Notes: generated from the letters alone by a model not told the origin. A stretch of 64,000 bases of DNA from an uncultured Candidatus Rokubacteria bacterium (GCA_963812945.1 CAWEXD010000008.1:256172-320171), one strand, 5' to 3'; counted from the stretch's first letter, positions 13,820 through 18,472 are shown. A program made the numbers and translations.

Positions 13820-14053
13820 ATGGGACGTCGAGCGCTGTTCTGGTCCGGCGCGGTGCTGGCCGCGCTCATCGTGCAGCAGATCGCGGTCCGGTCGTTCGGC
13901 CCGGACGCGAATCGGTGGCTCGGGATGGCCCTCCTCATCGCGGTCCTGCTCTCGGTGCCGGCGATCCTCCTGACGAGCCGCGTGGAGGGGGTCAGCCGGT
14001 GGCGCCGGTGGCGCGAGGCGCGCCGGCGCGCCCTCAAGCACCACCGGAGCTGA
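13820..14053 (+). CDS. small two-TM membrane protein (hypothetical)
   Basis: 77 aa. A GAGAGAGGA ribosome-binding site sits 7 nt upstream. GC3 is high and two hydrophobic helices are predicted. Its 3' end overlaps the convergent GT2 gene by 20 nt. Confidence 0.4.
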   Translation: MGRRALFWSGAVLAALIVQQIAVRSFGPDANRWLGMALLIAVLLSVPAILLTSRVEGVSRWRRWREARRRALKHHRS

Positions 14054-14762
14054 TCCGCGCGGCCTCCGACGGGACCGGCGTGGAGGTTCCGTAGTACCAG
14101 CGGTGGAGGCGCGCCGGCCGGACGCCGCAGACGTACAAGAAGCGTAGCGCCCACATCAGGACGACCGTCCGCGCCACCCCCTCGCGCTCCCACTTGCGTC
14201 CCGAGGTCGTGACGCGAAGACGCAGCGCGGTCAGGCGACCGGCGCGCTTCAGTCGGCGGGTCAGCTCGACGTCCTCCATGAGGGCGATGTCCGCGTAGCC
14301 GCCGAGCGCCTCGAACGTCGCCCGGCGCACGAAGATCGCCTGGTCCCCGGTGCAGATGCCCGTCAGTCGTGATCGCGCGTTCATGAGCCGGGCGATCAGC
14401 CGGAACGCCGGCCGGAGGCTGTCGAAGCGGACGTCGAAGCGGCCGTAGACGACCGCCGGGTCCGCCAGCGCGCTCAGGACGGCCTCGGCCGCCCCCGGCG
14501 GCAGGCGCGTGTCCGCGTGGAGGAACAGCAGGGCGTCGCCGCTCGCCGCCGCGGCCCCTGCGTTCATCTGGCGGGCGCGGCCGCGACCGCTTGCGACGAC
14601 GCGTACGCCCGGGATCCGAGCGGCGACCTCGGGGCTTCCGTCCGCGCTGCCACCGTCCACCACGATCACCTCGGCGCCGGGGCAGGTCGCGGCGAGATCC
14701 GGCAGCAGCGTCTCCAGGTGGCGGGCTTCGTCGAGGACGGGGATGACGATCGACAGCCGCAC
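14034..14762 (-). CDS. family 2 glycosyltransferase (rSAM/selenodomain-associated transferase 2, TIGR04283-like)
   Basis: 242 aa with a GTG start. It has SIVIPVLDEA, a DGGSxDGS motif and the DxD region typical of GT2. It is the last gene of the five-gene minus-strand operon. Confidence 0.75.
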   Translation of the reverse strand: MRLSIVIPVLDEARHLETLLPDLAATCPGAEVIVVDGGSADGSPEVAARIPGVRVVASGRGRARQMNAGAAAASGDALLFLHADTRLPPGAAEAVLSALADPAVVYGRFDVRFDSLRPAFRLIARLMNARSRLTGICTGDQAIFVRRATFEALGGYADIALMEDVELTRRLKRAGRLTALRLRVTTSGRKWEREGVARTVVLMWALRFLYVCGVRPARLHRWYYGTSTPVPSEAARISSGGA

Positions 14763-14772
14763 GGTCAGGGGA

Positions 14773-15498
14773 TTACCGGTCCGGTGAGAGGAGCTCTCCG
14801 GCGACCCGGCTCCGGCGAGCGAGCCACGCGGGCGTGAGCGAGATGAGGACGATGAGGAGCGCCGCGCCGGCCAGCATCCAGACAGTCCGGCGGGCCGCGC
14901 CGCCCGAAAGCGCTCCGCCGGCCAGCGTGAAGGCGACGGTCGCCGGGAGCATGCACGCCCAGGACACGCCGACGTAGGTCCAGAAGGGGATCCGCGTGAG
15001 GCCGTACGCGAAGTTCTGCAGGTTGAACGGAAAGAGCGGGACCAGGCGCGTGACCATCAGGATGCGCCAGCCGTGGCGCTCGACGGTGGCGTCGAGTCGC
15101 GCGAGCCGAGGGCTCTCTTCCATCCAGCGTTCGACCGTGTCGCGCGCAAGGTAGCGGGCCACGAGGAACGCGAGCGCGGCGGCCAGGGTCGAGGCGATCG
15201 ACACGTACACCGTGCCCCACAGCGGGCCGAACGCGAGGCCCCCGAGGAGGGTCAGGGGGAGCGCGGGGACGAACAGCAGCTCCGCCAGGACGTAGCCCGC
15301 CACGTACAGGACCGGGCCCCAGGCCCCGTAGGCCTCGATCGCCGGCCGCAGCTGCGTCAACCGATCCGGCCGCGCCCAGTCGTGGAGCCCAAGGCTCCAG
15401 GCGAGCGTGCCCGCCGCCACCAGAGCGACGGCCAGGAGGACCAGGCGGCCGGGAGCTCGGGCGCGGCCAGAGACGCGGCCGGGGCTCCCGGCGCGCAT
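14773..15498 (-). CDS. DedA / TVP38-TMEM64 family membrane protein
   Basis: 241 aa with multiple TM helices and DedA-like motifs (LVPLFPF, GxxxR). The ORF track merges it into a 681-aa ORF whose upstream part reads as wrong-frame junk. ATG at 15498 was checked. Confidence 0.75.
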   Translation of the reverse strand: MRAGSPGRVSGRARAPGRLVLLAVALVAAGTLAWSLGLHDWARPDRLTQLRPAIEAYGAWGPVLYVAGYVLAELLFVPALPLTLLGGLAFGPLWGTVYVSIASTLAAALAFLVARYLARDTVERWMEESPRLARLDATVERHGWRILMVTRLVPLFPFNLQNFAYGLTRIPFWTYVGVSWACMLPATVAFTLAGGALSGGAARRTVWMLAGAALLIVLISLTPAWLARRSRVAGELLSPDR

Positions 15499-17027: not shown

Positions 17028-18001
17028 GTGGTCGCGCCGCCGCAGGAGCTTCCCGCGCCGGCCGTGCACCCGAAGCAGTGCCGGGCCGTGCGGATCGGGC
17101 GCGCCGCGAGCCAGGCCGGGTCGAAGTCGCGAACGTGGGGGCGCCGACCCGGCGGGGCCTCGACCGGCAGCTCGAGCATCTGGTTGAAGTCGCAGTCGTG
17201 GAGCGTCCCGTCCCACGCGACCGAGAGCGTGTTGCGGCACATGAGCCCCGGGACGGCCGCCGGGTTGAACGTCGCCACCAGCCGCTCCATGTACCCCTGG
17301 AGATTGCCGCTCTCGACGAGCCAGTCGAGGAACCGGCTGATCGGCATGTTGGCGAGCGTGAAGAGCCGGTCGAACGTGACGCCGTGGTGCCGGACGAGCG
17401 CGGCCCTCCAGTCGCGCTCGAGCGAGGCCTGCGAGCCCGGGAGGAAGGCGCCCACCGGGTTGCTGACGAGCGTCAGCCGGCGCCGGGGATCGCCGTGTCC
17501 GTACCCCGCGGCGTTCAGCCGCCGGAGCGCCTCGATCGACCGCTCGAACGTCCCCTCGCCCCGCTGGGCGTCGGTGTTGAGCCGGCGGTAGTGGGGCAGG
17601 GAGCACACGACCTCGACGCCCCGCTCGGCGAGCCACGCGGGGAGATCCGCGCAGCGCGGCAGGAGGAGGACCGTCAGGTTGCACCGGTCCATCACGTGCT
17701 TGCCCCGGGCCACGGCCTGGTCGACGAGGTAGCGGAAGTGGGGGTTCAGCTCGGGCGCGCCGCCGGTGATGTCGACCGTGTGGGCCGTCGTCCTATCCAG
17801 CGCCGCCAGGCACAGGTCCACGGTCTCGCGGTCCATGTTCTCCGCGACCCGGTCCGGCCCGGCGTCGACGTGGCAGTGGCGGCAGGTCATGTTGCAGAGG
17901 CGGCCGACGTTGATCTGGAAGATCTCGAGCGGCGCCGGCCCGAGCTCGCGCCACCCGCACGCCTGGAGGGCCTCGCGGAAGTCACCGCCGGGGAGGGGCA
18001 T
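17024..18001 (-). CDS. radical SAM protein with a Cys-rich C-terminal domain (ArsS / TIGR04167-like)
   Basis: It has the CNMTCRHC (CxxxCxxC) radical SAM motif and a C-terminal CFGCTAGAGSSC Cys-rich tail. The likely start is the internal Met (MPLPGGDF..) at 18001. The alternative is the GTG at 18136, immediately after the upstream stop. Confidence 0.8.
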   Translation of the reverse strand: MPLPGGDFREALQACGWRELGPAPLEIFQINVGRLCNMTCRHCHVDAGPDRVAENMDRETVDLCLAALDRTTAHTVDITGGAPELNPHFRYLVDQAVARGKHVMDRCNLTVLLLPRCADLPAWLAERGVEVVCSLPHYRRLNTDAQRGEGTFERSIEALRRLNAAGYGHGDPRRRLTLVSNPVGAFLPGSQASLERDWRAALVRHHGVTFDRLFTLANMPISRFLDWLVESGNLQGYMERLVATFNPAAVPGLMCRNTLSVAWDGTLHDCDFNQMLELPVEAPPGRRPHVRDFDPAWLAARPIRTARHCFGCTAGAGSSCGGATT

Positions 18002-18136
18002 GCTCTCGAGAAGCCGGAGCTGGGCCGCGGGCACGGCGAGCGGAGCGCCGCGCGCGCGGAGACCCCGGGTCCCCTTCGGACCCCCAGCCGGGCTCGCGAG
18101 CTCGGGGTCGACGGCGGCCGGTCCCGGCACGAGCAC

Positions 18137-18472
18137 CTACATCATTCCCGCGTGCCGCGCGTGCTCGAGCATCTGCACGCCGTGAACCATCGACGCTCCG
18201 CCCCGGATGGCCGCGGCCACGTGGACGGCTTCCGTCATCTGCTCGAGGTCGGCGCCCTTCTCGAGACACGTCTTCGTGTACGCGTCGATGCAGTACGGGC
18301 ACTGGACGGCGTGCGCGACGCCGAGCGCGATCAGCGCCTTCTCCCGCTCGCCGAGCGCACCCTCGGCGAAGACCGCGTTGTACCAGGCGAAGAACTTCTC
18401 GGCGAGGTCCGGGTTGCCCTGGGCGATGTTCCCGAACTTCCCGAGGTGCTCCGGCGCGTAGTAGGTCTCCAT
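18137..18472 (-). CDS. carboxymuconolactone decarboxylase family (AhpD-like) protein
   Basis: 111 aa with an AhpD-fold CxxC motif (HAVQCPYCIDAYT). It is the first gene of the five-gene operon. Confidence 0.8.
   Translation of the reverse strand: METYYAPEHLGKFGNIAQGNPDLAEKFFAWYNAVFAEGALGEREKALIALGVAHAVQCPYCIDAYTKTCLEKGADLEQMTEAVHVAAAIRGGASMVHGVQMLEHARHAGMM

Follow-up and report, generated by a model that had tools for sequence, protein, structure and literature searches.

What might a bacterium make with an AhpD-like protein, an ArsS-type enzyme of the radical S-adenosylmethionine (SAM) family, a MerA-related flavoprotein reductase, a DedA membrane protein and a family-2 glycosyltransferase (GT2), all encoded in one tightly packed block? 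This is the question raised by a stretch of 64,000 nucleotides (nt) from an uncultured Candidatus Rokubacteria bacterium (GCA_963812945.1, CAWEXD010000008.1:256172-320171), hereafter the window, whose minus strand carries these five open reading frames (ORFs) from position 18472 to 14034. Our answer, which we hold with moderate confidence, is that they form an operon for an organoarsenical (arsenosugar-type) pathway consisting of two two-gene modules, AhpD-ArsS and reductase-DedA, and one transferase. We infer the roles of four of the five proteins, and likewise that the operon makes or processes an organoarsenical. The link to arsenic is supported by (i) fusions of ArsS to the methyltransferase ArsM, (ii) a fusion of ArsS to a CMD domain, (iii) a fusion of an ArsC-like domain to the reductase and (iv) cyanobacterial gene runs in which ArsM, DedA and ArsS follow one another.

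Five genes in one predicted operon

Profile searches confirm the predicted family identities of all five proteins above curated cut-offs, as a preliminary description of the locus had proposed, with positive results for TIGR04167, TIGR04283, CMD (PF02627) and DedA (PF09335) alike. The genes are listed with the basis of each assignment in brackets (aa, amino acids).

18137..18472, minus strand: gene 1, AhpD/CMD-fold protein of family TIGR04169, 111 aa, ATG start (profile search)
17024..18136, minus strand: gene 2, ArsS-type radical SAM enzyme, 370 aa, GTG start (profile search)
15504..17027, minus strand: gene 3, MerA-related FAD/NAD(P)H oxidoreductase of family NF004991, 507 aa, GTG start (profile search)
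14773..15507, minus strand: gene 4, DedA/VTT protein of the YdjX/YdjZ (COG0398) type, 244 aa (GTG at 15507) or 241 aa (ATG at 15498) (PF09335 and similarity to YdjX)
14034..14762, minus strand: gene 5, GT-A fold family-2 glycosyltransferase of family TIGR04283, 242 aa, GTG start (profile search)

The tight packing and GTGA overlaps described earlier are borne out, the four junctions measuring, in order and as read from the sequence, 0, -4, -4 (or +5) and +10 nt. The TAG of gene 1 (18139-18137) is directly abutted by the GTG of ArsS at 18136, hence the gap of 0 nt. The TGA of ArsS (17026-17024) lies within a GTGA in which the GTG of the reductase starts at 17027, and the TGA of the reductase (15506-15504) within a second GTGA in which the GTG of DedA starts at 15507; an alternative in-frame ATG for DedA (15498), preceded by GGTGA, lies 5 nt past the reductase stop. 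The TAA of DedA (14775-14773) is followed, after a spacer of 10 nt, by the GTG of GT2 at 14762. A strong Shine-Dalgarno sequence (GGAGGAG) stands ahead of the ATG of gene 1. GC content is ~72% throughout the window, and the operon ORFs have a coding-type distribution of GC over codon positions, with 0.83-0.96 GC at third positions (GC3), in an ORF scan in which DedA had no separate entry. A near-identical contig from ENA shows the same genes as called by an independent gene caller, with frameshifts in its DedA and GT2.

Consensus scans of positions 13500-20400 revealed neither a terminator-like hairpin with a U tract nor a sigma-70 promoter, and no Rfam family matched in 12000-21000 at a permissive threshold. 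One candidate promoter upstream of gene 1 (TTGACA...TAGGC) was dropped, as it lies mostly within the last codons and the stop of the preceding oxidoreductase gene (see below), so that its conservation is largely coding. With all genes on one strand, every junction either an overlap or a spacer no longer than ~10 nt, and no terminator found inside the block, the layout is best explained by a single co-translated operon, which we predict for a Rokubacteria-like soil bacterium.

ArsS and its AhpD-like partner

Gene 2 scores 408.9 bits against TIGR04167 (cut-off 300; model positions 6-302 of 303), 173.8 bits against PF12345 and 42.7 bits against PF04055. It carries both the radical SAM motif CNMTCRHC (17896-17873; C81, C85 and C88) and the C-terminal Cys cluster of DUF3641 (17077-17042; C354, C357 and C365), and the radical SAM Cys as well as C354 and C357 are invariant in an alignment of ArsS homologues. 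In the same alignment, three homologues (P0038, P0074 and P0105) stop just before the position of Cys365 (...GAGSS), the pattern expected from a selenocysteine (Sec) UGA codon read as a stop. The nearest relatives are found in Candidatus Rokubacteria metagenome-assembled genomes (86-88% identity), and the protein is 64-70% identical to cyanobacterial ArsS whose genes adjoin an ArsM of the 'arsenosugar biosynthesis' type (NF038099, 559 bits). ArsS takes the first committed step of arsenosugar synthesis, uses the products of ArsM and is co-transcribed with arsM, according to a preprint (bioRxiv 10.1101/2022.09.23.509062, citing Xue et al. 2019, on Synechocystis).

Could the element handled be selenium instead? 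The reductase would then act on selenite or selenodiglutathione, DedA would import selenite, and the radical SAM enzyme would adenosylate a selenium nucleophile to yield an organoselenium sugar, a scheme that we consider very unlikely. The family was indeed first defined as 'rSAM/selenodomain' and some of its members are selenoproteins, with Sec at the position of residue 365. However, this residue is Cys in the window ArsS, whose C terminus has no Sec (TGA) codon, and Cys is found in all 76 readable loci; moreover, Sec within an enzyme is uninformative about its substrate. A TIGR03169 'N-terminal-to-SelD' gene, convergent with the operon and 300 nt downstream of it, is kept in related contigs, but it stands beside the operon only within one lineage, and no selD or SelD domain was found in the window by tblastn with E. 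coli SelD. A survey of DedA proteins (PMC10127716) cites a link between DedA and selenite, whereas the fusions and neighbours seen here are ArsM and ArsC-like, not SelD. Of the metalloid pathway suggested in the preliminary description, arsenic has therefore gained support through fusions and neighbours, and selenium is left with circumstantial hints.

Gene 1 scores 177.7 bits against TIGR04169 (cut-off 120), a model named 'arsenosugar biosynthesis-associated peroxidase-like protein', and 62.7 bits against PF02627; besides this score, it has the CxxC motif of the family (CPYC, 18301-18290; Cys58 and Cys61) and the position directly upstream of ArsS. This position recurs. A scan of a genome collection returned at least 591 ArsS-encoding stretches, of which the best 80 (64-88% identity) were compared; these come mostly from cyanobacteria, together with Rokubacteria, Acidobacteriota, Rhodothermales, Myxococcota, Planctomycetota, Burkholderiales and Dadabacteria. 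Of the 75 loci in which enough sequence precedes ArsS, 59-60 (~80%) have an AhpD-like gene immediately upstream of it in the same orientation, which makes AhpD-ArsS a near-obligate pair. Beyond this gene, nothing is broadly conserved around ArsS in the 79 closest loci: DedA is nearby in eight, the NF004991 reductase in four, TIGR04283 in two to three and TIGR04282 in one. In cyanobacteria without the AhpD gene, ArsM and/or DedA stand in its place, in the following orders (Red, reductase).

L014 and L064: ArsM-DedA-ArsS
L035: DedA-Red-...-ArsM-DedA-ArsS
L053: DedA-ArsM-DedA-Red-ArsS
L077: DedA-ArsS

Clustering of ArsS proteins at 50% identity gave 576 representatives with E ≤ 1e-30, of which ten long ones were scanned; five proved to be fusions of ArsS to an ArsM-like methyltransferase, in either domain order, and one (P0199) a fusion to a CMD/AhpD domain. 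These fusions, together with an NCBIfam family called 'arsenite methyltransferase/AhpD domain selenoprotein' to which the product of gene 1 has a weak match, place the AhpD-like protein functionally between ArsM and ArsS.

Two side observations concern other neighbours of ArsS. In the cyanobacterial L034 (11915-15025), two ArsR-like genes and one resembling ArsC come after AhpD-ArsS, as seen by tblastn only. In three Burkholderiales-type loci (L036, L051 and L067) and one cyanobacterial locus (L070), a membrane protein of ~425 aa is encoded downstream of ArsS, which by eye resembles the chromate-ion-transporter (ChrA) family and which we take to be a putative member of it; a putative ABC permease and an ABC ATPase are encoded upstream in the former three.

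A sister subfamily of mercuric reductase

Gene 3 scores 791.5 bits against NF004991 (cut-off 620; positions 10-507 of 509). Among solved structures, those of MerA (5x1y, 286.6 bits; 1zk7) match it best, followed by lipoamide dehydrogenases, and NCBI names its homologues 'mercuric reductase', which raises the question of whether it is a genuine mercuric reductase and the operon a mercury-resistance unit. The signatures used to recognise MerA are the redox CxxxxC, the C-terminal vicinal Cys pair, Tyr605 and Tyr264 (PMC8261052). The first is present as CLNTGC (16817-16800), with C71 and C76 invariant in an alignment of 16 subfamily members, and an invariant Tyr472 (15614-15612) aligns with the Tyr of MerA 5x1y (Tyr605 in B. 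cereus numbering) and with the catalytic His of E. coli Gor. However, the score against the MerA model TIGR02053 (403.7 bits) is under the cut-off of 454.45; the C-terminal tail, which is conserved (RTxLTP...WLxWTR), has no Cys in any of the 16 members, the window reductase (...RTKLTPLTQTALRTWLRWTR) included, and so the vicinal pair is missing; V130/W131 stand in place of Tyr264, at a site that varies across the subfamily; and the NmerA domain is absent. Nor did merR, merT or merP turn up among the scanned window ORFs, no search having been aimed at them. A mercury-resistance unit is thus extremely improbable, and the presence of the redox pair and Tyr605, with the C-terminal Cys pair, Tyr264 and NmerA all absent, defines a sister subfamily of MerA, not MerA itself. 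Its 16 members share an N-terminal PxDxxNxxLxxxVxP...NP motif and an invariant C339.

The same Tyr has implications for the substrate. A His-Glu dyad of the glutathione-reductase kind was considered and rejected on alignments to Gor and MerA, since Tyr472 occupies the position of the His, as in MerA, which makes the earlier designation as a 'disulfide reductase' doubtful. The absence of this acid-base residue makes a thiophilic metal or metalloid, or a thiol adduct of it, a more probable substrate than an ordinary disulfide.

It also bears on a further alternative, a thiol-peroxide or oxidative-stress relay like the mycobacterial Lpd-AhpD, in which the flavoprotein would reduce the AhpD-like CxxC protein. 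There is little chance that this is what the operon does. An AhpD-fold CxxC protein and a lipoamide-dehydrogenase-like flavoprotein do share the operon, and in E. coli ynjA (AhpD-like) comes directly after ydjZ (DedA), but the flavoprotein is without the His used for disulfides, the operon showed no gene for AhpC or a peroxiredoxin, and TIGR04169 is tied to ArsS in ~80% of loci and even fused to it. Furthermore, in L035, L053 and L102 the reductase accompanies ArsS in the absence of AhpD, and a dedicated reductase-to-AhpD relay is therefore not required.

The reductase-DedA pair

Gene 4 encodes a VTT protein (PF09335, 94.9 bits) with hydrophobic segments and no NCBIfam match, including none to the UptA model. 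Its identity to YdjX of E. coli is 37.5% (E 1e-39), YdjZ is matched too (E 2.5e-23), and the protein is far nearer to these two than to YqjA and DedA (both E 0.002), which assigns it to the COG0398 subfamily and not to the undecaprenyl-phosphate-flippase type, COG0586. In a 2023 survey (PMC10127716), oxidoreductase domains (PF07992/PF02852) are the commonest fusion partner of COG0398 proteins; the reason for the fusion is unexplained there and tied only to aerobic metabolism, and the DedA proteins themselves are proposed to be phospholipid scramblases. In E. coli K-12 (1833401-1836063), the gene order is ydjX (DedA)-ydjY (4Fe-4S)-ydjZ (DedA)-ynjA (AhpD-like), with ydjZ and ynjA abutting, an unexplained echo of a YdjX-type DedA beside an AhpD-fold protein.

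To see the company that the reductase keeps, we read nine distinct gene contexts around homologues from NF004991 (61-67% identity), a small sample, partly picked for interesting architectures, which shows recurrence and not frequency. DedA is fused or adjacent to the reductase in seven of these nine independent contexts, P0368 being a true fusion (63% identity with the reductase of the window); four of the clusters include an ArsS or ArsM gene, and in five contexts a TIGR04282/04283 transferase is encoded within 8 kb. A conserved Cys pair in DedA was considered as a target of the reductase and discarded: the reductase-associated DedAs share no conserved Cys, so that DedA is not itself the substrate. 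The contexts are as follows, double colons marking fusions and rSAM standing for radical SAM.

L088: window order repeated
L082-85: DedA::reductase fusion, then AhpD (TIGR04169, 177 bits) and ArsS (45% identical); 4 kb off, a triple fusion (AglJ-like GT2::TIGR04282::TIGR04283) and a gene for DUF547
L102: ArsS (46% identical)-reductase-TIGR04282::TIGR04283-DedA
L086 (4813-12416, metagenomic): ArsC-like::reductase, DedA, Rv1681-like rSAM::ArsM, PHO4 transporter, TIGR04283::TIGR04282
L087: DedA-reductase, with TIGR04282 4 kb off
L089 and L090: DedA-reductase alone
L092 and L103: reductase without DedA

In L086, the ArsC-like N-terminal domain matches only arsenate-reductase families (best 82 bits, under cut-off), and the ArsM part of the rSAM::ArsM fusion scores 235 against the cut-off of 263 for NF008823, its radical SAM part not being of the ArsS type. 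The two pairs, AhpD-ArsS and reductase-DedA, re-cluster with TIGR04283/04282 and with ArsM or ArsC-like domains in distant lineages, and the link of the reductase-DedA pair to ArsS, ArsM and the transferases is supported by fusions and shuffled synteny. Of the recurrent neighbourhood asserted in the preliminary description, what stands is the AhpD-ArsS pair in ~80% of loci and the re-clustering of the reductase, DedA and TIGR04283/04282 with ArsS in L082, L102, L035 and L053; the gene order is also conserved in related genomes (L002, L003, L088 and L098), and the exact five-gene set and order is confined to Rokubacteria.

A side observation was made in L092 (9624-11444), where the gene after the NF004991 homologue encodes a MIP-channel protein with two glyoxalase/VOC domains joined to it; MGH1-like glycoside hydrolases are encoded on this contig and likewise on L103.

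The transferase

Gene 5 scores 267.6 bits against TIGR04283 (cut-off 182) and 73.7 bits against PF00535, and it has the acidic metal-binding motif expected of the fold, with H82-A83-D84, D140 and E163-D164 invariant in an alignment of its homologues. An AlphaFold2 model (mean pLDDT 88.7, confident save for the last 15 residues) consists of a GT-A core and two C-terminal helices. Foldseek retrieves many GT2 enzymes at TM 0.59-0.67, including the membrane-associated PcManGT and ArnC, and at the sequence level ArnC and DPMS are the only matches in the PDB (E ~5e-5). With such a generic GT-A fold, and with a DedA that is not of the undecaprenyl-phosphate-flippase type, the 'glycolipid' product once proposed is still a guess. 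In JGI, homologues go under the name 'rSAM/selenodomain-associated transferase 2', and in NCBI under 'TIGR04283 family arsenosugar biosynthesis glycosyltransferase [Candidatus Rokuibacteriota]'. Elsewhere, the nucleotidyltransferase-like TIGR04282 (DUF2064) is fused to or near TIGR04283 (L082, L086, L087, L102 and L070). Homologues of 332-335 aa, which might have passed for forms with an extra domain, were rejected as such: their Arg/Pro/Glu-rich low-complexity tail is read-through opposite the 77-aa ORF described below.

How the operon might work

In the arsenosugar-type pathway that we favour, ArsS would cleave SAM and transfer the 5'-deoxyadenosyl group onto trivalent dimethylarsenic, an activity shown for its cyanobacterial relative and presumed here, with the methylated arsenic either made by an ArsM whose gene lies elsewhere or drawn from the environment. 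The CPYC protein may hand over or protect a thiol-bound trivalent arsenical or, possibly, redox-cycle the Cys-rich tail of ArsS. The reductase could use NAD(P)H at the membrane to bring oxidised (pentavalent) arsenicals, or a carrier thiol, back to the reduced state, which is what ArsS would need in an aerobic cell; DedA could dock the reductase and move the substrate or a lipid-linked product. The TIGR04283 GT-A enzyme would act after adenosylation, on the ribosyl product or its acceptor.

The more specific proposal that the NF004991 flavoprotein and the YdjX-type DedA form a dedicated membrane-docked metalloid reductase/transport module, which would restore methylated arsenic to the trivalent form for ArsS, or reduce a thiol carrier to which it is bound, besides transporting a lipid-linked product, is a tentative one, to which we give a rather low probability. 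If true, it would provide (i) a first function for the widespread DedA::oxidoreductase fusions, (ii) a candidate pentavalent-methylarsenical reductase and (iii) a place for TIGR04283/04282 in the post-adenosylation steps of arsenosugar or arsenolipid synthesis. To our knowledge, no enzyme that returns oxidised methylarsenicals to the trivalent state has been identified, and we know of no genes assigned to the arsenosugar or arsenolipid steps after ArsS.

Several observations weigh against an arsenosugar-type pathway. As the preliminary description had remarked for arsM and selD, the expected companions are missing: no arsM, arsR, arsC or acr3/arsB was found in the 64-kb window by tblastn (queries including ArsM from cyanobacteria and elsewhere, TIGR04282, ArsR/B/C and E. 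coli SelD) and family scans, which left some small ORFs unscanned, and the sole methyltransferase in the window (31763-32533) is generic (58.9 bits, against 263 for NF008823 ArsM). No ArsM was found within ±8-10 kb in L002, L003, L088 and L098 either, and ArsM is near ArsS in only seven of the 79 closest loci. The DedA-reductase pairs of L087, L089 and L090 have no arsenic gene in sight, and the same reading has to accommodate the loci cited above in which the reductase accompanies ArsS without AhpD. In Deferrimicrobia (L096, 3594-8190; also L097), one GT2-centred look-up gave the order DUF547-Rv1681-like rSAM-metallophosphoesterase-DedA-DUF3047-TIGR04283 with no ArsS, showing that the transferase-DedA pair is not exclusive to ArsS. 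As for the transferase, the fold search yielded no informative or specific best match from which to read donor or acceptor, and its partner TIGR04282 has no homologue in the window by tblastn.

These absences, together with the free-standing DedA-reductase and DedA-GT2 modules, keep in play the idea of a composite operon, in which only AhpD-ArsS is arsenic-related and the reductase-DedA pair and GT2 are an independent membrane redox or lipid-homeostasis module that shares the transcript in Rokubacteria. This idea draws on the stand-alone pairs (L087, L089 and L090/91), on TIGR04283-DedA accompanied by DUF547, the Rv1681-like rSAM, the metallophosphoesterase and DUF3047 but not by ArsS, and on the low counts near ArsS of the reductase (four) and GT2 (two to three) in the 79 closest loci; the proposal of a general phospholipid scramblase function for COG0398 DedAs would also suit it (PMC10127716). 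We nevertheless consider it unlikely, since (i) 4-nt overlaps tie ArsS to the reductase and the reductase to DedA in the window, (ii) the same families rejoin, fused or in altered orders, in four or more distant lineages, (iii) the ArsC-like::reductase fusion occurs within a cluster that also bears an ArsM domain (L086) and (iv) DedA stands between ArsM and ArsS in cyanobacteria.

Some of the accompanying families recur in other places. DUF547 is also found beside ArsM in the cyanobacterial L014 and near the glycosyltransferase fusion in L082, and a metallophosphoesterase homologous to that of L096 lies 3-4 kb from ArsS in L006 and L020. In the window itself, tblastn detected no ArsC-like domain, PHO4, DUF547, metallophosphoesterase or DUF3047.

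The operon and its related clusters provide a set of candidates for the arsenosugar-type pathway, that is, the AhpD-like CxxC protein, the MerA-related reductase, the YdjX-type DedA, TIGR04283/04282, DUF547 and the metallophosphoesterase, and what most merits testing is the connection of the reductase-DedA pair to arsenic. The locus survey also shows that ArsS and its AhpD-like partner reach uncultured soil lineages well beyond cyanobacteria.

Surroundings of the operon

The genes that flank the operon, and two more distant ones that are unrelated to it, are listed below (OYE, Old Yellow Enzyme).

18567..20135, minus strand: OYE-type FMN oxidoreductase, a possible sixth gene of the unit in this lineage (PF00724, 122.4 bits)
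13820..14053, plus strand: 77-aa ORF with two hydrophobic segments, GC3 0.95
12611..13729, plus strand: TIGR03169 oxidoreductase (341.4 bits, cut-off 310), the convergent gene mentioned above
8470..9624, minus strand: acyl-CoA dehydrogenase, 535 bits to 3-sulfinopropanoyl-CoA desulfinase, under the cut-off of 600; unrelated to the operon
2174..4426, plus strand: salicylyl-CoA 5-hydroxylase/OYE fusion (1163 bits, cut-off 1078); unrelated to the operon

The OYE gene lies 94 nt upstream of gene 1, and all its NCBIfam equivalog matches are far under cut-off. It is kept upstream of the AhpD gene in L002, L003 and L088, with a spacer of only ~20 nt in L003, and was not seen beside ArsS outside Rokubacteria; its product carries a C-terminal Cys cluster. 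The 94-nt gap (18473-18566) folds into a hairpin rich in GC (-44.8 kcal/mol, z = -2.2) that has no U tract, and two TTGACA hexamers near it sit within the end of the OYE ORF. The 77-aa ORF, whose 3' end overlaps that of GT2 by 20 nt, is 75-82% identical in L002, L003 and L098, and the TIGR03169 gene holds the same position in L002, L003, L088 and L098. The full window order, with the OYE and TIGR03169 genes, is found only in these Rokubacteria-type contigs (L002, L003, L088 and L098). The remainder of the window is given over to acyl-CoA metabolism, ABC transporters and other unrelated functions.

Comparison with known systems

In hopanoid side-chain synthesis, the radical SAM enzyme HpnH adds a 5'-deoxyadenosyl group, later enzymes, starting with HpnG, process the ribose, and a GT2 is encoded in the same clusters, which makes this pathway an analogue. 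However, ArsS and GT2 give only weak matches to HpnH (37 bits) and HpnB (25 bits), both far under cut-off in profile searches, the proposed substrate is a metalloid and not a triterpene, and the operon has no HpnG-like nucleosidase.

The mycobacterial Lpd-DlaT-AhpD-AhpC relay likewise combines an AhpD-fold CxxC protein with a flavoprotein of the lipoamide dehydrogenase family. In contrast, the window operon has neither AhpC nor a lipoyl carrier, its flavoprotein is without the catalytic His, and its AhpD-like protein goes with ArsS and not with a peroxiredoxin.

With MerA (Tn501, Bacillus RC607), the reductase shares the fold, the FAD and NAD(P)H domains, the redox CxxxxC and the Tyr in place of His; it differs in its own N-terminal motif, in its Cys-free tail and in its partner, which is DedA and not MerT/MerP. 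As for the COG0398 fusions, the window encodes a YdjX-type DedA whose neighbour belongs to the commonest class of fusion partner reported in the part of the survey available to us, where no link to ArsS, ArsM or arsenosugar transferases was found (PMC10127716). Our literature search found neither a functional study of the reductase, DedA or the transferases in the context of ArsS nor a described link of the MerA-related reductase/YdjX-type DedA pair to ArsS, ArsM or the transferases.

The cyanobacterial ArsM-ArsS pathway is matched in its second enzyme, which belongs to the same TIGR04167 and DUF3641 family and has all of the cluster and C-terminal Cys in the window. The differences are that the window and operon are without arsM, that the host is from a non-photosynthetic soil lineage and that the operon adds the AhpD-like protein, the reductase, DedA and GT2, with roles outside the scope of the cyanobacterial work.

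Finally, the operon is the Rokubacterial instance of a neighbourhood that curated databases have already named. Homologues of ArsS are publicly called 'radical SAM/Cys-rich protein' or 'arsenosugar biosynthesis radical SAM (seleno)protein ArsS', and the novelty initially ascribed to the locus was overrated, since NCBI and JGI already name its families as arsenosugar-biosynthesis or rSAM/selenodomain-associated. Annotation of the PGAP (Prokaryotic Genome Annotation Pipeline) type would mark three of the five genes as arsenosugar-related. Of the TIGRFAMs/NCBIfam set (TIGR04167, TIGR04169, TIGR04282 and TIGR04283), all save TIGR04282 are represented in the window by genes that score above cut-off and sit together, whereas NF004991 and DedA bear no arsenosugar name, yet recur with the families that do.

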